Positions 13,581-39,911 of a stretch of DNA of 64,000 bases are shown in pieces (the stretch's first letter is position 1; every line of letters starts with the position of its first letter). Made by a program: the position numbers and the translations under genes. The stretch spans positions 13,713 to 77,712 of the forward strand of contig JBPOHU010000001.1 of the NCBI GenBank assembly GCA_052035195.1. Reading direction: 5' to 3'. This stretch comes from Candidatus Nomurabacteria bacterium (lineage in GTDB: Bacteria > Patescibacteriota > Minisyncoccia > Phycocordibacterales > UBA9973). The notes beneath the pieces are model-generated. The model was not told the origin of the DNA, did no database searches, and saw only the letters and a program-made list of their open reading frames with translations.

Positions 13581-14432
13581 TTACCAAATATTTTTTGCAA
13601 ATAGCTCCATTGAAACGATTGCTCCAATTAGAGTATTAATCATAGGGAAGTAGGTATAGAGCTTGAATAGAGCTTCTTCTGTTTTCGCTCTCTGGCTACG
13701 CCACATAAAATAAGAGAAAACTATAGCCCCAACAAAACTTGCTATAGGGACTATATCTTTTACCAAATAACCAGCAAATACATATAAGAACCAACAAAGA
13801 GCTATAGTTCTCTGTTTTCCAATCATGATAGCGATAGTGTGTAGTCCTGCTTCAAAGTCTGCTTTGATATCTGGGACTGCACTATAGGCATGCATTGCAA
13901 CAGCCCAAAGTAGTCCAGCTATTATTCCAACAGCAGGGAAGCTTTCTCCTCCTGCTAGATAGTATCCAAAGACCCCCGTAGCAGTGTAGTGACCAGCAGA
14001 AAACAAGGAATCAATGATAGGTTTAGCTTTGGCTCGTATTGGTTCTGCAGAATAAAAAGAAGCAAAAAATACAAAAGCTAAAAATGAAAGTATTATTGGT
14101 GCAGAAAGTGGAACAAAGAAAAAGAATGGAACATTTGTAAAAATTATCCATTTCCATAGAGATCGTTGTCTTTCTGGTGGAACTAGTGCCTCATAGGCAT
14201 TGTCACCCTTTTTAGGATTTAGTTTATCCGTTTCGTAATCAAAAATATCATTGATACCGTATATCAAGATATTAGCTGGTATTAAAAAGTAGAGTGCAAA
14301 TACCCAATACCGCCAATCTGAAAAAAAGCTTAATCCCTGTAATGCTCCTACGGTTCCCACAAGTCCAAAAGTCGCTGCTTCATATAACCAAAAACGAGGT
14401 CTAGATATTTTAAGTACTTCTTTTATAGTCAT
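13581..14432 (-). CDS. UbiA-family aromatic/isoprenoid prenyltransferase (integral membrane)
   Basis: NDIFDYETD matches the UbiA NDxxDxxxD motif. Multiple TM helices. Start taken at the internal ATG (MTIKEVLKISRPRFW) rather than the ORF-track start at 14591. Confidence 0.65.
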   Translation of the reverse strand: MTIKEVLKISRPRFWLYEAATFGLVGTVGALQGLSFFSDWRYWVFALYFLIPANILIYGINDIFDYETDKLNPKKGDNAYEALVPPERQRSLWKWIIFTNVPFFFFVPLSAPIILSFLAFVFFASFYSAEPIRAKAKPIIDSLFSAGHYTATGVFGYYLAGGESFPAVGIIAGLLWAVAMHAYSAVPDIKADFEAGLHTIAIMIGKQRTIALCWFLYVFAGYLVKDIVPIASFVGAIVFSYFMWRSQRAKTEEALFKLYTYFPMINTLIGAIVSMELFAKNIW

Positions 14433-31805: not shown

Positions 31806-32714
31806 ATGAAATACCAAAATTTTTTCCCAGCCTTTATTCTATTTTTAACAACTTTTTTGTTTGTTGTTATTTTATTACCTCAAAGTAGTTACGCCGCTTA
31901 CATTAATGCTTCTGCTGAAAGTAGTATTTCTGCTGGAGATATTAGTATTATAAATATCTATTTAAATACTGAAGGCCAAGAAATCAACTCTCTCGAAGGA
32001 ACGATATCACTTTCAGACAATCGTGATAGTAATTTTGAGGTTAAAGACATTTCTCTTGTTAATTCAGTATTTAGTATGTGGCCACGCAAACCTTCTTTAA
32101 CCACGGGGCATAATATTACGTTTATCGGCGGGGTACCTGGTGGTGTAAAAGGTGACAGACTTTTAATCTTCTCAGCTTTTGTAAAAATAAATAGTCCAGG
32201 TAGTTTTGTTATAAGTCCAAGAGTAATCACTGCTTATAAAAATGATGGTTTAGCAACGGCTATTTCAATCACCAAAGACATTTCAACTATTAATGTTAGT
32301 TCTGCGGGTTCTTCACAAAAGAACGCTTTAGAGGAAGTTATTTCAAACGATAACATAGCCCCAGACCCTTTTAATGTAAGCCTTATAAAAGACCCAAACC
32401 TTTATGACAATAAAAAGTTTATTAATTTTGAAACAAATGATGGGCAATCAGGAATAAGTCATTATGAAGTAAGAGAGGGGAGTTACCCAGCTGTTAGAAG
32501 TGGTACTTCTTATATTCTTGTTGATCAAAACAAAAAAGCTAATGTCGTTGTTACTGCATATGATAAGGCTGGAAATTTTCAAGTTGTTAGCTTCAAAGAA
32601 AAACAACCTATTCGCTGGTTAACTGTCTTTACTTCTGTCATAATTATATTAGTAATAAATAAAATAGTTAAAAATAAAATTAAAAGAAGAAGCAATGCAA
32701 AAATACTGCAATAG
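31806..32714 (+). CDS. Membrane-anchored cohesin-like domain protein (signal peptide, cohesin-like beta-sandwich, Ig-like domain, C-terminal TM)
   Basis: Cohesin-like pattern SAGDISIINIYLNTEGQEINSLEGTISLSDN..FEVKDISLVNSVF..GDRLLIFSAFVKINSPGSF. Ig-like domain ending VVVTAYDKAGNFQVV. C-terminal TM plus basic tail. Confidence 0.5.
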   Translation: MKYQNFFPAFILFLTTFLFVVILLPQSSYAAYINASAESSISAGDISIINIYLNTEGQEINSLEGTISLSDNRDSNFEVKDISLVNSVFSMWPRKPSLTTGHNITFIGGVPGGVKGDRLLIFSAFVKINSPGSFVISPRVITAYKNDGLATAISITKDISTINVSSAGSSQKNALEEVISNDNIAPDPFNVSLIKDPNLYDNKKFINFETNDGQSGISHYEVREGSYPAVRSGTSYILVDQNKKANVVVTAYDKAGNFQVVSFKEKQPIRWLTVFTSVIIILVINKIVKNKIKRRSNAKILQ

Positions 32715-34410
32715 TTTAAGTTTTCTAAAAAGAATATCTGTTCTGATATTTATTTTTTGTATTTTATTGCCTATAAATAAAGTTGAGGCTGCTACTCTTT
32801 CTTTTTCTCCGAGCTCTACAACTGTTTCTGAAGGAAATATTGTTTCAATAAAAGTTGTAACAAATACTCTCGGCAAGTCAGTTAATAATGCAGAAGCTAC
32901 AATACAGTTTCCAACTGATTTACTCGAGGTTGTATCTGTTAATAAGAGCAATTCAATTTTTTCTTTGTGGGTGGAAGAACCTAAATTTTCTAACGCAGCA
33001 GGTACAGTATCGTTTAATGGTGGAGTTTCAAACCCAGGGTATACAGGTAGTAACGGCACGCTTGCTACTATTACCTTTAAAGCAAAGAAATCAGGCGTAG
33101 CCACCGTACTTTTTGCTGATGCAGCTGTCAGAGAAAACGATGGGCTAGGTACTGACATTATCTCTGGTAGGGGTACAAGTGTGATTCAGATTGGTAATCC
33201 AAAAGAAACTGAAACTCCAACTCCTGCCACTCCTACAACTACTACAAAATCTGTTAAGCCTATTGTGACTTCTGATACACATCCAGACCAAAACACATGG
33301 TATTCAAATAGCACCGCGTCTTTCAATTGGAAAACTCCTTCTGGTGTTAATTCTGTTCAAGCTTTTACAAACAGAATTCCAGAATCAGTTCCGACCACTA
33401 CTTATGATAGCTCTGTTACCCAAAAAACACTGACAGAACTTCCTGACGGCACTTTTTATTTCCATATTAGATATTCCGGCTCAAATGGTTGGGGTCCTAT
33501 AACTCACTACAAAATAAAAGTTGATACCAAGGCCCCAGAGGCTTTCACACCAACAATTAAAACCGTTGGCAATCAAAGTATTATTGAATTAAAAGCTGAA
33601 GACTTAACTTCTGGTATAGATTATTACACTCTAAAAATAGATGAAGGTGATATTTTAAACATCAAAAAAGACGATTTAATAAATTCTGAGTACATTCTCC
33701 CTGTTCTAGCTCAAGGAGATCATGTTGTAACTGTTGTAGCTTATGATAAAGCAGGTAACCATACAGAAGCTACCACAAACTTTACTAGCTCTTTTATTAC
33801 CCCTCCTTCAATATCTCTAAGTTCTTCAGAAGTTAAAAAAGGAGATCCAGTAATTATTTTTGGTAAAAGTGATTATCCAAACAAACAAGTTGAAATAATT
33901 TTTGAACTATCTGGAATACAAATCAAAAAATACATAGGAACAACTTCTGATGACGGCTCTTTCTCAGTAACTGTCGAAAATGTTAGAAAAGTTGGACTTA
34001 TAAAAGTATCAGCAAAAAATATTTTATCTGATTCAGTAAAAAGCCAAGCTTCTGAAAGTCTAGATTTGAGAGTTCTCAAGAGTGATTTTGCCAAAGTCAC
34101 AGTGACATTATTCTGGGTAGTTTTGGCAGTCGCCTTATTAGTACTATTGTTGATAGTTTTGTACATTGGTTGGTACAAGTTCTTGTCACTCAAAAAGAAA
34201 AATAAATCAAAATTACAAAATGCAATAGAAGATGCCCATAGAGCAGTGGTTCTTTTGAAAGAGGAGCTAAATGATCAGCTTGCAGAACTCGAAAAGGTTC
34301 GTGTTGATAGAGAATTAAATAAAAATGAAGAAATGGTATTTAAAGAAATTCAAAAAAATGTAGATGACGTAGATAAGTTTATTGAAAAGAAACTCAAAAA
34401 GTTACTTTAG
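32695..34410 (+). CDS. Membrane-anchored cohesin-like domain protein, second paralogue, with Ig-like domains and cytoplasmic coiled-coil tail
   Basis: N-terminal signal/TM. Cohesin-like VSEGNIVSIKVVTNTLGKSVNNAEATIQFPTDLLEVVSV..GTLATITFKAKKSGVATVLF. Thr/Pro linker. Ig-like domain ending VVTVVAYDKAGNHTEA. TM helix LFWVVLAVALLVLLLIVLYIGWY and a charged coiled-coil C-terminus. Confidence 0.5.
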   Translation: MQKYCNSLSFLKRISVLIFIFCILLPINKVEAATLSFSPSSTTVSEGNIVSIKVVTNTLGKSVNNAEATIQFPTDLLEVVSVNKSNSIFSLWVEEPKFSNAAGTVSFNGGVSNPGYTGSNGTLATITFKAKKSGVATVLFADAAVRENDGLGTDIISGRGTSVIQIGNPKETETPTPATPTTTTKSVKPIVTSDTHPDQNTWYSNSTASFNWKTPSGVNSVQAFTNRIPESVPTTTYDSSVTQKTLTELPDGTFYFHIRYSGSNGWGPITHYKIKVDTKAPEAFTPTIKTVGNQSIIELKAEDLTSGIDYYTLKIDEGDILNIKKDDLINSEYILPVLAQGDHVVTVVAYDKAGNHTEATTNFTSSFITPPSISLSSSEVKKGDPVIIFGKSDYPNKQVEIIFELSGIQIKKYIGTTSDDGSFSVTVENVRKVGLIKVSAKNILSDSVKSQASESLDLRVLKSDFAKVTVTLFWVVLAVALLVLLLIVLYIGWYKFLSLKKKNKSKLQNAIEDAHRAVVLLKEELNDQLAELEKVRVDRELNKNEEMVFKEIQKNVDDVDKFIEKKLKKLL

Positions 34411-35797: not shown

Positions 35798-35828
35798 ACC
35801 CCGGATTAATTCCGGGGTTATTTTTTTA
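35798..35828. terminator. Bidirectional intrinsic terminator
   Basis: CCCCGGA-TTAAT-TCCGGGG hairpin flanked by A-run and T-run. The stop codon of the minus-strand DUF1003 gene abuts the stem. Confidence 0.6.
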
Positions 35829-36321
35829 ATTGCTCTATTTCTTTTTGAAGCTGTGTCAGGATAGTTTGGATAGCAGATATAGCATTGGCTTCTTTGGCCT
35901 CTATTTTTTGGTCTTCGGTGCTGTCTTCTTCGATATCTTCAATGTCTTCTTGAATCTCATCCACATCTTTCTGAATCTCATCCACATCTTTTTCAATCTC
36001 TTCAACACCTTCCTCAATCTCCTCAATATCTTCTTGGATTTCTTCCACGTCTTCTTGAATGATTTCGATGTCTTTGGTGTTTTTGTTAACTGACATTTGT
36101 ATAAAGATAGCTAGATATATTGCTTCGAGAGATAGAAGGGTAGTTAGTACTAGTAACACTCTTTCAAGGCTAATACCAAAAAGAGGAAGACTAAAAGCTC
36201 CTAAAAATAAAATAGTGTGGACTATTAAGCTACGAGTAGAGCCTATCCAGCGCGTAGCTTTGTCAGCACTTTTTTCTAATAAGGCAATATTTTGATATAA
36301 TAAAATATATGGAAAAAACAC
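35818..36321 (-). CDS. DUF1003-like two-TM membrane protein with acidic heptad-repeat N-terminal region
   Basis: TM pair plus LEAIYLAIFIQMSVNKNTKD resembles DUF1003. Acidic repeats EDVEEIQEDIEEIEEGVEEIEKDVDEIQKDVDEIQEDIEDIEED. Confidence 0.5.
   Translation of the reverse strand: MFFPYILLYQNIALLEKSADKATRWIGSTRSLIVHTILFLGAFSLPLFGISLERVLLVLTTLLSLEAIYLAIFIQMSVNKNTKDIEIIQEDVEEIQEDIEEIEEGVEEIEKDVDEIQKDVDEIQEDIEDIEEDSTEDQKIEAKEANAISAIQTILTQLQKEIEQLKK
35926..36078. repeat. About eight tandem 21-nt repeats encoding the acidic heptads of the DUF1003 gene
   Basis: gaatctcatccacatctttct / gaatctcatccacatctttttc / aatctcttcaacaccttcctc and further related units. Confidence 0.6.
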
Positions 36322-37376
36322 CAGAAGGGATAAATGAATCTAGTCAGCAAGAAAACAGAATTGAAAAAATTGTTACCCATGAGGGTTTTTTTCATACTGA
36401 CGAGGTGTTTGCCACCGCAATTTTGAAAGATTTGTTTCCAGAGTCAATGGAATTAAAAGATGGTGGTAAGGCCGATTTTGTTAAATATTTGAGAACTAGA
36501 GATAAGGGGACTATATCTCGATACAAAGAATCACCTTCTACTTTACTAACTGATGTTGGAGGTGAATATGATTTTGAAAATTTTAATATGGATCATCATC
36601 AGATCGAAGGAGCTGGAGCAAGAGAAAATGGTATTAAATACGCTGCAGCAGGTTTGGTATGGAAGCATTTTGGTAAGGAGTGGATAAAGTATGTAGATGT
36701 TTATTCTCGTCGCTTAAATATGTCAGAAGAAGAAATAGACTTTGTTTGGGGGCAGGTTGACGAAACATATGTTCAATTTTTTGATAGTAGTGATACAGGG
36801 CAAATGGAGAGTATTACGTGTGAACTTAAGGACGGAACAGAGCTTAATGGCAAGCCGTTCTCTTTTAGTGAAATAATCAGGCTTTATAATATTGATGTTG
36901 GGGATGGTAGTAAACATCAAAAACGTTTTGACTTAGCTGTAGAAGTAATGAGAACCTCTATGCTTTCAATTGCCTATAAGTATATGCAGATGATTGAAGG
37001 TTTGAGAAAATTTAATCTTGAAAAGTGTGAATTTATTTCAAACGGAAGGGCTGTTATTATTAATCAGGATGTTGGATCAGAGGTGTCTTCATATGTACTA
37101 GATAAGCAAGAAGAATTTAAAAAAGTTGAGTATTACGCAGTACGAAACTTTAAAGATAATTACACTATTTTAGTTGCTCCTGTTGAGAGAGGTCAAAGAA
37201 AGTACCGTAATCCAAATGCAATTCCAGTCGAATTAAGACTCGCTGATAATGTAGAAGAAATTAATAAACTTATTGGAGTAGAAAAAGGTGTTATTTTTTC
37301 ACATACAGCAGGTTTTATGGCCTCATGTAAAGATTTAGAAACTGCTCGAAAATTTTTAGAGTATTGCACAAAATAA
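36309..37376 (+). CDS. MYG1/UPF0160-family metal-dependent hydrolase (RNA 3'-5' exonuclease family)
   Basis: IVTHEGFFHTDEVFATAIL matches the THxGxFHxDE motif. TDVGGEYDFENFNMDHHQ matches the DVGGxYD..DHHQ motif. Confidence 0.75.
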   Translation: MEKTPEGINESSQQENRIEKIVTHEGFFHTDEVFATAILKDLFPESMELKDGGKADFVKYLRTRDKGTISRYKESPSTLLTDVGGEYDFENFNMDHHQIEGAGARENGIKYAAAGLVWKHFGKEWIKYVDVYSRRLNMSEEEIDFVWGQVDETYVQFFDSSDTGQMESITCELKDGTELNGKPFSFSEIIRLYNIDVGDGSKHQKRFDLAVEVMRTSMLSIAYKYMQMIEGLRKFNLEKCEFISNGRAVIINQDVGSEVSSYVLDKQEEFKKVEYYAVRNFKDNYTILVAPVERGQRKYRNPNAIPVELRLADNVEEINKLIGVEKGVIFSHTAGFMASCKDLETARKFLEYCTK

Positions 37377-37428
37377 AATAACCCATAAAGAAATTGTCAT
37401 TAGACTTTTTCTTTATGGGTATGAATGT

Positions 37429-38019
37429 TTAAGCGGTTTTTTGTCCGTACCTTTTTTTGAATTTATCAATCTGTGAACTACCGTAAGGGCTGGTCACTTT
37501 TTGATTACCGGCTTCAACTTTGGGGTTTTTAGCCGGGGTAGGGGCTTGGTTGGAAGGATTAGGAGCAGGCTGGTTGTTTTTTTTATCCTTATTTTCATTT
37601 CGGATATTTTTCTTGAGCAAATTCAGCTTCTTACTGAGCTCAGGGTTTTCCTTCATTGTAGAGGTGCCCTTCCTGAGTGCCATTGCTTTCTGAAAGACCT
37701 TTTTCCTTTCGATCGGGTTTTGCAGTTTGAGACAAAGCGCAACAGCCATTTCGAACCTTTCAGGGTCATTTTTTTCATTCAGCTCCCTGGTTACCACTTC
37801 GGGATTACCTTTTTTCCACATTTTTTCTGCCCACAGGAACTCATCGTACCCTTCTTTGTGATCTTCAAGGGTGTGTTCGTTGTGGGTTTTTCCAATATGC
37901 AGATCGCCAGTCGGTGTCATGTAGAAATGCATGTCGCCTCTGTCATAGAATTCAATCCAGATGCGTGTATTACCTGATGTGCTGGGATAAAGCCCAACCA
38001 CTCTTTTAATTCTTGCCAT
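37429..38019 (-). CDS. Hypothetical protein (196 aa), noticeably GC-richer than neighbours, Lys/Asn/Pro-rich C-terminus
   Basis: ORF with a clear ATG at 38019. Composition by eye is richer in G/C than flanking genes. Confidence 0.4.
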   Translation of the reverse strand: MARIKRVVGLYPSTSGNTRIWIEFYDRGDMHFYMTPTGDLHIGKTHNEHTLEDHKEGYDEFLWAEKMWKKGNPEVVTRELNEKNDPERFEMAVALCLKLQNPIERKKVFQKAMALRKGTSTMKENPELSKKLNLLKKNIRNENKDKKNNQPAPNPSNQAPTPAKNPKVEAGNQKVTSPYGSSQIDKFKKRYGQKTA

Positions 38020-38025
38020 ATTATT

Positions 38026-38095
38026 GGGGGTTTTAATTGTTTACCAAAAACCTTAGGATGTTAGTCTAGAATCTTTGGTAAACAATTAAAACTCC
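38026..38095. promoter_or_regulatory. 19-bp perfect inverted repeat in the 5' leader/promoter of the 37429-38019 gene
   Basis: GGTTTTAATTGTTTACCAAA at 38025-38044, and its reverse complement TTTGGTAAACAATTAAAAC at 38076-38094, separated by about 30 nt. Confidence 0.4.
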
Positions 38096-38218
38096 TTTCA
38101 AAGAACCTTATATTAATATTGTAGCATAATAGAGTAACTATGTCAAGTAGTATTAATATACTTATAAAATAAGGCTAATTGTGTAAATACTTTATTATTA
38201 GTAAACTAAAAGAGACTT

Positions 38219-39598
38219 ATGAAATTTTCTAGTATATACATACCCACAAGGCCACAACCAGACACTATTGTAGCGATTTTCTTACTTAAGGCTTACGGGG
38301 TAACCATTTTTAATGGTATTGATACTGCTGATTATCAAGTTCTTTCTCATACTGATCAAAATAAAGATGAAAAAGAGTATTTGAAAGAAGGTAAAATATT
38401 ACTTGATGTTGGTGGAGGTATTTTTGATCACCACAATAAACTTGAAAAAACTACAGCTAGTGAACTTGTTGCCAAGGCTTTAGGTATACAAAATGAGCCT
38501 GCTATCCAAAAGCTTTTAGCTTACGCTAAGCGAGATGATTTTTATGGAAAGGGTACACAGTCTGATGATCCACTTGATAAAGCTTTTGGACTCTCTGGTT
38601 TAATAGCCGCTATGAATAAAACTCATTTGGACAATCCTACTGTTATTGTCGATACAATCCTTCCTCTTCTGCAGGCTCATCATAATCAAGAAAAACAAAG
38701 AACTATAGAATCGCCTAAAGAAATATCTTTGCTTCGAGAAAGAGGTCTTTTTTCTGAGATAGAAGTACTTCAGAAAAAAAATACACTCAAGGTTTGTTTT
38801 GTAGAATCTGATAACGTTGGTCTTCCAGGGTTTCTTCGAGCAACTGATGGTGGTCGTTATGATGTTGTAGTTCAGAAACGTAGTACTGGCCATGTAAATA
38901 TTTTGACTAAACCACTTAAAAGACCTGATTTGCGACCATTAGTCGGCTTGATCCGGGCAGAAGAGTATAGTATTCGCTCTGGTATTTTTTACCCAAATCC
39001 TGATTTGTTGAAATTACCCGGAAGAAATGACGATGTTCCGTTTTGGTATTTTGATCCAGCAACCAATTCTTTGCAAAATGGAGGTGTTAATCCTGAACAA
39101 ACAGAAGCAACTAAAATCCCCTGGGAAATAATAAAAAAACTCACGGAGAAAGGAATGGCTCTTTTTGAAGGAACAATTTTTAAACAGAAGGATCCGTCAC
39201 GTGTTTTATATACTGCTTTATTTGTAGATTCACCCGACCAACTTCTATCTAGATTTAAACCTAAGCACTCCCAGGTGTATGCGCACCATCTTACACTAAA
39301 TTATAAGCCTGAATCTATAAAAGATTTAGAAATAGGAAAGAAGATTGAACTTAAGATTATAGGGCGAGTTTCAGATGGCAATGGGGACGCCCTTCTTGTT
39401 GAAACTGATTTAAAAACAGAGGGTAGACATCCTCATATTACACTTTCTTGCGCAGAAGGTTTTCGTCCAAACTATTCAAACCAGATGGTTGAAAAGGCGG
39501 TGTTAGATGGCACTGTAGAGTATTTCGATGATGTTGAATATGTTGAAACTACCGAAGGATACGAAAATGGTGAAAATAAGGTTATTATCTCATTATAG
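38219..39598 (+). CDS. Fusion protein: divergent MYG1-like N-terminal domain plus C-terminal 2H-phosphoesterase (LigT/CPDase-like) domain
   Basis: LDVGGGIFDHHN resembles the MYG1 DVGGxYD..DHHQ motif. The C-terminal domain carries two HxT/Sx motifs (AHHLTL and HPHITLS) separated by about 70 aa, as in 2H phosphoesterases. Confidence 0.5.
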   Translation: MKFSSIYIPTRPQPDTIVAIFLLKAYGVTIFNGIDTADYQVLSHTDQNKDEKEYLKEGKILLDVGGGIFDHHNKLEKTTASELVAKALGIQNEPAIQKLLAYAKRDDFYGKGTQSDDPLDKAFGLSGLIAAMNKTHLDNPTVIVDTILPLLQAHHNQEKQRTIESPKEISLLRERGLFSEIEVLQKKNTLKVCFVESDNVGLPGFLRATDGGRYDVVVQKRSTGHVNILTKPLKRPDLRPLVGLIRAEEYSIRSGIFYPNPDLLKLPGRNDDVPFWYFDPATNSLQNGGVNPEQTEATKIPWEIIKKLTEKGMALFEGTIFKQKDPSRVLYTALFVDSPDQLLSRFKPKHSQVYAHHLTLNYKPESIKDLEIGKKIELKIIGRVSDGNGDALLVETDLKTEGRHPHITLSCAEGFRPNYSNQMVEKAVLDGTVEYFDDVEYVETTEGYENGENKVIISL

Positions 39599-39638: not shown

Positions 39639-39797
39639 ATGCCACAGCAAAACCTAGTAAAATTAGTAAACAAAGAGACAGGGGAAACCTATTGGTCTAC
39701 AAAAAACCGCAAAAAGCTTGCAGGTATTAAGCTTGAATTCAAGAAATACTCTCGAAAACTTCGAAAGGTTGTATCTTTCAAGGAATCAAAGAAATAA
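39639..39797 (+). CDS. rpmG: 50S ribosomal protein L33 (Cys-less variant); below ORF-track size cutoff
   Basis: MPQQNLVKLVNKETGETYWSTKNRKKLAGIKLEFKKYSRKLRKVVSFKESKK aligns with the L33 pattern (Y.TTKNK....RLELKKY..R..KHV.HKE.K). Followed by a terminator. Confidence 0.65.
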   Translation: MPQQNLVKLVNKETGETYWSTKNRKKLAGIKLEFKKYSRKLRKVVSFKESKK

Positions 39798-39803
39798 TAA
39801 AAA

Positions 39804-39826
39804 CCCTCATTATGAGGGTTTTTATT
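39804..39826 (+). terminator. Intrinsic terminator after rpmG
   Basis: CCCTC-ATTAT-GAGGG followed by TTTTTATTATTT. Confidence 0.5.
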
Positions 39827-39837
39827 ATTTCTTTTTG

Positions 39838-39911
39838 TGGCGGGCGATGTAGGAATCGGACCCACACCAAAGGTTTTGGAGACCTTCGTTCTACCACTAA
39901 ACTAATCGCCC
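39838..39911 (-). tRNA. tRNA-Trp (anticodon CCA)
   Basis: Reverse complement GGGCGATTAGTTTAGTGGTAGAACGAAGGTCTCCAAAACCTTTGGTGTGGGTCCGATTCCTACATCGCCCGCCA. 7-bp acceptor stem, anticodon stem AAGGT/ACCTT with loop CTCCAAA, encoded CCA end. Confidence 0.8.

Follow-up and report, generated by a model that had tools for sequence, protein, structure and literature searches.

The 64,000-nucleotide (nt) stretch of DNA considered here (the window; contig JBPOHU010000001.1 of Candidatus Nomurabacteria bacterium, positions 13,713 to 77,712 of the forward strand) contains two genes, gene 1 (36309-37376) and gene 2 (38219-39598), that a preliminary description took for a pair of MYG1-family genes forming a candidate RNA end-processing and repair module, the second gene being fused to a 2H phosphoesterase domain. 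The two open reading frames (ORFs) lie at exactly the coordinates given there, and all the motifs quoted in that description are present in them. Hence the question raised by this locus: do the two genes constitute a joint repair module, or is the fused gene an enzyme in its own right? We argue that gene 2 very probably joins a miniature 2H domain of the CNPase/Trl1-CPD-like branch (CPD, cyclic phosphodiesterase) to a DHH-type domain whose catalytic lobe is distantly related to MYG1, and that gene 1 is a separate, ordinary enzyme and not an obligate partner of gene 2.

The two domains of gene 2

In the AlphaFold2 model of the gene 2 product (pLDDT 94.5, pTM 0.71), residues 319-326 alone are disordered, and the protein, as modelled, consists of two independently folding domains of catalytic type with this disordered linker between them:

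38219-39598, plus strand: gene 2 as a whole, 459 amino acids (aa), MYG1-related DHH-type phosphoesterase, linker and mini-2H phosphoesterase (both assignments predicted)
38219-38740, plus strand: catalytic (DHH-like) lobe, aa 1-174, supported by hhalign against MYG1, conservation and Foldseek
38741-39172, plus strand: second lobe, aa 175-318, in a DHHA1-like position, supported by the secondary structure of the model and conservation
39173-39196, plus strand: flexible interdomain linker, aa 319-326, the sole segment of the model with pLDDT <50
39197-39595, plus strand: mini-2H domain, aa 327-459, supported by HxT motifs, fold model and Foldseek

Orthologs of identical architecture exist (P0001, with 95% identity, P0003-P0006 and P0023), stand-alone orthologs of the N-terminal domain (hereafter, N-domain) terminate at the position of the linker, and the nearest homologs of gene 2 all come from Patescibacteria/Paceibacteria metagenome-assembled genomes (MAGs). 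Standard searches say little about this protein: gene 2 has no significant family in Pfam or NCBIfam, BLASTP of gene 1 against gene 2 aligns the DVGG..DHH stretch alone (E=11), and sequence and profile searches of the PDB with gene 2, the N-domain family, the C-domain family and a diverse 72-sequence N-domain profile returned only spurious matches (I-CreI, the His-tag of an HIV Env entry, EGFR).

The C-terminal domain carries two HxT motifs, HHLTL at aa 356-360 (nt 39284-39298), with H357-L-T359 as the first, and HPHITLS at aa 404-410 (nt 39428-39448), with H406-I-T408 as the second, separated by 49 residues in a domain of ~135 aa. A homology search with aa 321-459 yielded 89 relatives, mostly stand-alone proteins of ~130-150 aa, and an alignment of 42 of these shows both HxT motifs, a strand-1 tyrosine (within LYTALF, nt 39206-39223, in gene 2) and one phenylalanine to be invariant. 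Modelled alone (pLDDT 93.6, pTM 0.86), the domain displays the HxT motifs on strands 2 (E37-42) and 5 (E86-91), and among the 50 PDB matches listed by Foldseek all are 2H enzymes, among them the CNPase catalytic domain (TMq 0.54-0.69), the kinase-CPD part of Candida Trl1 (6u05, 0.61) and the Arabidopsis CPDase 1fsi. Thus, modelling places the motifs in a 2H fold, as the preliminary description had supposed, and the C-domain is, by its model, a miniature 2H phosphoesterase. This layout agrees with the one published for the Trl1 CPD, the part of fungal tRNA ligase that heals ends as a cyclic phosphodiesterase: the HxT motifs occupy strands 2 and 5, strand 1 contributes a tyrosine, the first HxT has an aromatic residue at +5, and the second is not followed by an arginine (PMC7145591). 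The mini-2H domain shares the fold and all these features with the Trl1 CPD and CNPase, which also provide its best Pfam (PF08302) and structure matches, but it is much smaller (~135 aa against 200-250 aa) and its partner is a DHH enzyme instead of kinase and ligase modules.

At the level of sequence families, PF08302 (tRNA_lig_CPD) matches 39 of the 42 relatives below threshold (best E=1.5e-6), and the gene 2 domain scores 15.4 bits alone and 12.5 in the full-length protein against a cutoff of 23, which makes it related to this family but not a member. PF02834 (LigT) gives weak matches in three of the 42 and does not recognize the gene 2 domain, whose second motif, HITLSC, lacks the arginine of the extended LigT motif; hhalign of LigT against the mini-2H gives a Prob of 7%. 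Being below both the PF08302 and the PF02834 thresholds, the mini-2H is treated here as a separate family. Among the viral models of BFVD, its best matches are Trl1-like multidomain RNA ligases of giant viruses (E3T4N1, A0A481YY40; TMq 0.59-0.67, ~20% identity), with the anti-CBASS protein Acb1 (TMq ~0.47) and nidovirus 2H phosphodiesterases ranking below them. The mini-2H also matches phrog_36523, a phage family of unassigned function, with E down to 7.9e-10 for its relatives.

The N-terminal half had been called degenerate and MYG1-like. The likeness is real, although confined to the catalytic lobe, and the degeneracy is not. This lobe contains motif I (PTRPQPDT, with P9, Q13 and D15), motifs II and III (LDVGGGIFDHH, with D63, D70, H71 and H72; LDVGGGIFDHHN at aa 62-73) and motif IV (RDDFYGKG, with D106 and D107). 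The first hhalign alignments of the N-domain with MYG1 had a Prob of 93.9%; with 116 diverse N-domain members against 52 MYG1 proteins, the Prob is 97.3% (E=2.6e-11, 149 columns), the match extending over gene 2 aa 2-151 and MYG1 aa 17-214 with the motifs in register. In this profile alignment, MYG1 H24, H29 and D31 correspond to P9, Q13 and D15 of gene 2, the MYG1 DVGG...DHH to DVGGGIFDHH, and the IDxxDNG-type motif to RDDFYGKG, so that the two families have in common the order and spacing of xxD(T/E), DVGG...(F)DHH, (R/I)DxxD/GxG and F(G)LSxLIxxxN. Among the 116 diverse homologs, D15 is present in all, D70 in 106, H72 in 110 and D107 in 106, while D63, H71 and D106 are conserved within the subgroup that contains gene 2. 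Since the canonical metal ligands of DHH enzymes are near-universal, the N-domain is probably catalytically active, as far as can be judged from conservation. With the HxT motifs invariant in 42 homologs and D15, D70, H72 and D107 near-invariant in 116, the motifs of gene 2 are more than chance resemblances.

The relationship is nonetheless beyond the reach of routine annotation. With the threshold relaxed to E<=1, PF03690, the MYG1 family, still matched neither gene 2 nor any of 40 homologs and 10 members of a divergent subgroup (subgroup B, see below), and Pfam and NCBIfam offered no family for the N-domain in any of these three sets; HMM-versus-sequence PDB searches from N-domain profiles did not reach MYG1, and the N-domain homologs gave no sequence signal of PF01368 or PF02272. 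With Foldseek, the N-domain finds the DHH/DHHA1 enzymes DhhP (9r7o), TM1595 (5o1u) and GdpP (5xt3) at E=2.9e-5 to 2e-3; the low TM-scores probably stem from a differing orientation of the two lobes in the model. The N-domain resembles these phosphodiesterases and the NrnA-type nanoRNases in combining a DHH motif with acidic ligands and, as far as its model suggests, in having two lobes joined by a long helix, but its second lobe bears NGG and WYxD motifs instead of GGGH. The motifs of this lobe are GHVNILT, WYFDPATNSLQNGG and WYxDxxxNSxxNGG, and R246, E249, W276, N287 and G288 are near-universal. We conclude from these sequence comparisons that the N-half belongs to a separate, well-conserved family of the MYG1/DHH superfamily that carries no annotation, and is not a decayed MYG1.

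About one third of the N-domain family (subgroup B, with P0355, P0364, P0373, P0386, P0395 and P0408) keeps a MYG1-type motif I, 'THxxPHxDE', whereas glycine occupies motif II and 'DEH' takes the place of DHH in motif III, the opposite of the pattern in the gene 2 subgroup. Judging by the aligned motifs, metal ligands seem to have been exchanged from one motif to another, and, by virtue of the MYG1-type motif I that it retains, subgroup B bridges the N-domain family and MYG1.

The N-domain family and its 2H partners

How far has the fusion spread? Searched exhaustively with a profile (E<=1e-3) and clustered at 50% identity, the N-domain family comprises 1413 representative clusters. Gene neighbourhoods were surveyed in 79 species-level genomes or loci, counting as neighbours the genes within 6 kilobases (kb); all of these species are Patescibacteria except one, which is probably a mis-binned MAG. 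The domain arrangements in two sets of homologs were as follows:

120 closest homologs: N-domain alone in 77; mini-2H N-terminal in 12 and C-terminal in 8; long extension with two HxT/S motifs in 23, always N-terminal
124 near-complete representatives: N-domain alone in 87; mini-2H N-terminal in ~8 and C-terminal in ~4; long extension N-terminal in ~15 and C-terminal in 5-6

Two kinds of long extension (~180 aa, with two HxT/S motifs) can be told apart. In type a, the three examples that were scanned proved to be genuine LigT domains (PF02834 at 36-54 bits, cutoff 23.3) with the HxTxxF and HxTxxR motifs of ThpR (PMC4201822). In type b, both HxT motifs are invariant, but neither Pfam, NCBIfam, PDB-profile searches nor hhalign support a 2H identity, and this type is counted here as 2H-like by motif only. 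Although the C-domain in the window is itself not of the LigT type, in some relatives a genuine ThpR/LigT domain thus replaces the mini-2H beside the same N-domain partner, which implies that the two have an equivalent function.

Of the 79 species, 16 have the N-domain fused to a 2H-type domain, in five arrangements (8 with verified 2H domains, 8 with type b). In another 9, the 2H-type gene is not fused but lies no more than 6 kb away, in 4 cases as a type-b gene that abuts the N-domain gene on the same strand. The fusion is widespread and recurrent. Among the 124 representatives, no partner domain recurs other than 2H or 2H-like extensions, and a few have degenerate 2H-like or low-complexity tails. 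In four loci (L001-L004) where the N-domain gene is 72-76% identical to gene 2, the mini-2H is wholly absent, so that its gain or loss is recent. We found no published description of a fusion of DHH or MYG1 with 2H or LigT, within an incomplete coverage of the literature.

Several further arrangements were noticed in this family. P0265, P0271 and P0340 have an additional C-terminal LigT-like domain of ~200 aa with degeneration of one HxT motif or of both (for instance, 'FHIPL' or 'YRITIF'), P0271 having a 2H-type domain at either end. In 14 of the 79 Paceibacteria genomes (at L043 2127-3206 and at 13 further loci from the range L011-L089), the active-looking copy of the N-domain has a full-length paralog directly upstream of it (hhalign 99.8%); this paralog has lost the DHH motif ('PIDiG..KYh', 'NNktGyL'), and the two look, by their motifs, like a tandem pair of enzyme and pseudo-enzyme, a pair that is absent from the window. 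In another locus (L006 4526-9494), a stand-alone mini-2H gene is preceded by NUDIX and CYTH genes and followed, two genes downstream, by an HD-domain gene, a context of nucleotide metabolism unlike that in the window. Finally, a 1.2-kb metagenome contig (P0128) encodes a 70-aa HAD-like fragment joined to a mini-2H; this was considered as a case of '2H plus phosphatase' and set aside because of the truncated HAD, as it could be the remnant of a real phosphatase-2H fusion or an assembly artefact.

A possible action on 2',3'-cyclic-phosphate ends

The 2',3'-cyclic-phosphate ends left by metal-independent ribonucleases block 3' exonucleases. In our estimate, the chances are about even that gene 2 encodes a bifunctional phosphoesterase that acts on such ends in two steps. 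In the first step, the 2H domain would hydrolyse the 2',3'-cyclic phosphate at the 3' end of an RNA fragment or oligonucleotide or, possibly, in a 2',3'-cyclic nucleoside monophosphate (2',3'-cNMP), to yield a 2'-phosphomonoester; this reaction would not depend on a metal, the HxT histidines serving as general acid and base like in ThpR, Trl1-CPD and CNPase. In the second step, the DHH/MYG1-like domain, with a Mn2+/Mg2+ site formed by D15, D63, D70-H71-H72 and D106/D107, would remove the phosphomonoester or the entire phosphorylated terminal nucleotide, and further 3'-5' trimming might follow. The net result would be the conversion of exonuclease-resistant cyclic-phosphate (>p) ends into 3'-OH ends or mononucleotides, which, in a Patescibacteria member with a reduced genome, would help to turn over RNA, to salvage nucleotides or to heal 3' ends. 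CNPase converts 2',3'-cNMP into 2'-NMP. ThpR turns RNA>p into 2'-PO4 ends (PMC4201822). The N-domain is fused or adjacent to several 2H-type domains (two verified, one motif-only) in either order, and this variability suggests two independent active sites that act sequentially and not a composite site. Since no linked kinase or ligase was found in the regions scanned (see below), and since 2H enzymes of this class leave a 2'-PO4 end, we prefer to full repair a clearing of ends that serves turnover or salvage, or else a simple healing of the 3' end.

The same logic of opening the ring and then removing the phosphomonoester or the nucleotide is followed by known systems for two-step clearing of cyclic phosphates, namely, CpdB (a 2',3'-cyclic phosphodiesterase/3'-nucleotidase), the T4/Clostridium Pnkp phosphatase and ANGEL2, but their folds are different (calcineurin-like, HAD/DxD and EEP, respectively), and to our knowledge none of them joins 2H with DHH.

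A number of observations weigh against this proposal. The second lobe of the N-domain has no similarity to the MYG1 C-lobe (hhalign Prob 0.2%), and the latter, including its conserved C-terminal histidine, is without a detectable counterpart in gene 2; since the C-lobe sets the substrate in DHH enzymes, the substrate of MYG1 cannot be transferred to the N-domain. Both motif-I histidines of MYG1 are replaced (P9, Q13), so that the N-domain should bind metal differently, and we know of no experimental precedent for a DHH enzyme that acts on a 2'-phosphate end. Half of the fused cases among the 79 genomes (type b) are 2H-like by motif alone. Moreover, ~70-80% of the N-domain family have no fused 2H, and none of three stand-alone mini-2H genes (L005-L007), inspected as possible halves of a split gene, adjoins an N-domain gene; hence, the coupling between the N-domain and 2H is facultative.

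The strongest competitor, which we regard as a possible but clearly less probable account, has gene 2 working on small molecules: the 2H domain would open 2',3'-cNMPs or cleave 2'-5' or cyclic-oligonucleotide linkages, and the DHH domain would be a nucleotidase, a nanoRNase or a pAp-type phosphatase. The corresponding roles, which we hold to be just as tentative, would be to salvage nucleotides out of scavenged RNA or to remove those that serve as signals, with CpdB as a functional analogue for the former and Acb1 or GdpP for the latter. This account draws on the DHH/DHHA1 structural neighbours DhhP, TM1595 and GdpP being dinucleotide or nanoRNA phosphodiesterases, on the top 2H match, CNPase, acting on 2',3'-cNMPs, on the presence of Acb1 among the viral fold matches and of a phage family (phrog_36523) among the sequence matches, on the stand-alone mini-2H found amid NUDIX, CYTH and HD genes, and on the dependence of Patescibacteria on salvage. 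However, the mini-2H is nearer to the RNA-end CPDs of the Trl1 type than to Acb1 in terms of TMq (0.59-0.67 against ~0.47), the sole relative of the N-domain detectable by sequence is an RNA exonuclease, and the context is one of housekeeping genes, with no defence or anti-defence match in PADLOC. The two accounts overlap, the size of the substrate being the one difference between them.

Gene 1, the neighbourhood and the wider meaning

A third account, that of the preliminary description, brings in gene 1: the 2H domain would heal the 3' ends of broken tRNA or rRNA, the nucleases encoded by genes 1 and 2 would trim them, and the RNA would then be resealed. We consider such a repair module unlikely. 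Its starting point, that gene 1 is a MYG1, is borne out. The gene 1 protein matches PF03690 over aa 20-349 (E=3.8e-40; 138.9 bits, cutoff 22.1), the profile of its family finds the PDB entry 'MYG1 exonuclease' (24ah) at E=7e-62, and the single sequence finds the same entry at E=4.3e-7 with every catalytic motif aligned. The motifs are THEGFFHTDE (aa 23-32), DVGGEYD (aa 82-88), DHHQ (aa 95-98), D159/D162 and a C-terminal FSHTAGF, and in the family alignment of 33 sequences H24 (in at least 90%), H29, D31, D82, D95-H96-H97, D159, D162 and H332 are conserved. On this evidence of sequence, gene 1 encodes a full member of MYG1/UPF0160, MYG1 being a DHH-motif 3'-5' RNA exonuclease in human and yeast (PMC6582341). 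Both genes are, accordingly, RNA-end enzymes by homology, and the repair account can further point to the mini-2H being nearest to the end-healing CPD of Trl1-type ligases, to the adjacency of MYG1 and the gene 2 family (window, L001-L004 and 5 of the 79 other species), and to the tRNA and translation genes close by.

The layout of the locus speaks a different language:

36309-37376, plus strand: gene 1, 355 aa, canonical MYG1/UPF0160 DHH-family phosphoesterase by sequence
37429-38019, minus strand: ORF of 196 aa with no family assigned, between gene 1 and gene 2
38219-39598, plus strand: gene 2
39639-39797, plus strand: rpmG, ribosomal protein L33 (PF00471, E=1e-9)
39790-39832, plus strand: terminator-like hairpin with a T-run, found by sequence scan, closing the gene 2-rpmG unit
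39838-39911, minus strand: tRNA-Trp, downstream of rpmG

Genes 1 and 2 are separate transcription units, as between them lies an opposite-strand ORF with its own strong promoter-like site (38146-38118, 11/12 matches, with TG, in the intergenic region before gene 2). This ORF has no family match in Pfam, NCBIfam, PHROGs or PADLOC, and its syntenic counterparts, of 172-219 aa, are found in L001, L003 and L010. Gene 2, in turn, is probably co-transcribed with rpmG, which starts 40 nt 3' of it, since no terminator separates the two genes and the hairpin with its T-run follows rpmG; their adjacency is also seen in L001, L002 and L010. Hence, of the claim that rpmG and tRNA genes lie immediately downstream, the part on rpmG holds, and tRNA-Trp does follow but on the minus strand.

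The comparison of neighbourhoods points the same way. The order ychF, coiled-coil gene, MYG1, hypothetical gene, gene 2, rpmG, miaA, parB is kept in L001-L004, but L010 has the fused gene (59% identity) in a similar synteny without MYG1. Among the 79 species, MYG1 occurs within 6 kb of the gene 2 family in 5, in varied arrangements, which makes it rarer than the unrelated neighbours FtsH (19), a cluster of aminoacyl-tRNA-synthetase-like ORFs (8) and RNase Y (7); the neighbours of more distant relatives are UPF0102 and FtsH, RNHCP, or ribosomal-protein clusters. The adjacency of MYG1 and gene 2 is thus at the level of the synteny background, with at most a weak tendency. Taken together, the arrangement of promoter and terminator, the opposite-strand gene and the neighbourhood counts lead us to reject a conserved MYG1-gene 2 operon and the notion of the pair as a conserved module. 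As for repair itself, which had been an inference, the ORF and domain scans of the window, which covered its 32.6-44 kb part, revealed neither a kinase nor a ligase, and none is annotated in L001-L010 or belongs to the gene families that recur around the 79 loci. In addition, a 2'-PO4 end is not known to be a substrate for RtcB-type sealing. The clearing of ends for turnover fits at least equally well.

It is more improbable still that one of the domains is non-catalytic, the mini-2H being a binder of nucleotides or RNA ends, as proposed for 2H domains of the AKAP7 type, or the N-domain a pseudo-enzyme scaffold. The mini-2H is, indeed, unusually small, with 49 residues between the HxT motifs against ~80 in LigT and CNPase, the motif-I histidines of the N-domain have given way to P9 and Q13, and degenerate N-domain paralogs and 2H-like tails occur elsewhere in the family. 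However, both histidines and both threonines of the HxT motifs are invariant, D15, D70, H72 and D107 are near-universal, D63, H71 and D106 are kept in the gene 2 subgroup, and the degenerate paralogs show what loss looks like, gene 2 being unlike them. A role in defence or anti-defence was discarded, given the lack of PADLOC matches and the housekeeping context.

Some other features were recorded in the vicinity. Upstream, a 571-aa protein (32695-34410, plus strand) combines a signal-anchor-like N-terminus and weak Ig-like matches with a coiled-coil tail and a C-terminal transmembrane segment, and is probably exposed at the surface of this episymbiont-type bacterium. A bidirectional terminator-like hairpin (35798-35818) separates ychF from the gene for a 167-aa membrane-anchored coiled-coil protein (35818-36321, minus strand) with a repetitive acidic 'EEIQEDIEEIE' region; the synteny of this gene is kept, and its relatives give weak DUF948 and DUF2730 matches. 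The Rfam scan of the window revealed three tRNAs and nothing else. Between tRNA-Leu (minus strand) and parB (plus strand), the GC-rich segment 41025-41475 contains no convincing gene and gives nothing in Rfam even at E<=1; its folding beats that of shuffled sequences on both strands (z=-2.2 and -2.6), and its plus strand holds GGAAAGUUCCCCCGGGCU, which we take to resemble the P4 region of RNase P RNA. This segment may be a divergent non-coding RNA of the Candidate Phyla Radiation (CPR).

What, then, is new? Both superfamilies were already known, and gene 1 is ordinary; the novelty consists in a large MYG1-related family without annotation, which among the loci retrieved is confined to Patescibacteria, in its repeated fusion to 2H and in the miniature 2H domain. 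The analysis thereby defines a minimal 2H domain of ~135 aa that is shared with phages and related to the CPD of Trl1-type ligases. The N-domain family offers an evolutionary handle on MYG1, whose role in bacteria is not addressed in the literature that we found. Patescibacteria account for a large part of the diversity of bacteria and have tiny genomes with few recognizable enzymes of RNA decay and nucleotide salvage, and the repeated and varied fusions and adjacencies with 2H amount to a prediction, of the Rosetta-stone type, of a two-step activity on 2',3'-cyclic-phosphate ends. A more general and distinctly more speculative proposal, which we regard as possible but rather improbable, is that the N-domain family is a hitherto unrecognized, Patescibacteria-wide enzyme for 2'-phosphorylated or cyclic-phosphate 3' ends of RNA, either a metal-dependent 2'-phosphatase or an exonuclease that removes the 2'-phospho-nucleotide, which would have recruited 2H domains independently at least three times (counting verified 2H only) or at least five times (with the motif-only types). 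If this proposal is true, minimal genomes would possess a way of clearing >p ends that depends neither on Tpt1 nor on Pnkp, and a comparable, unexplored activity would be suggested for MYG1 itself.

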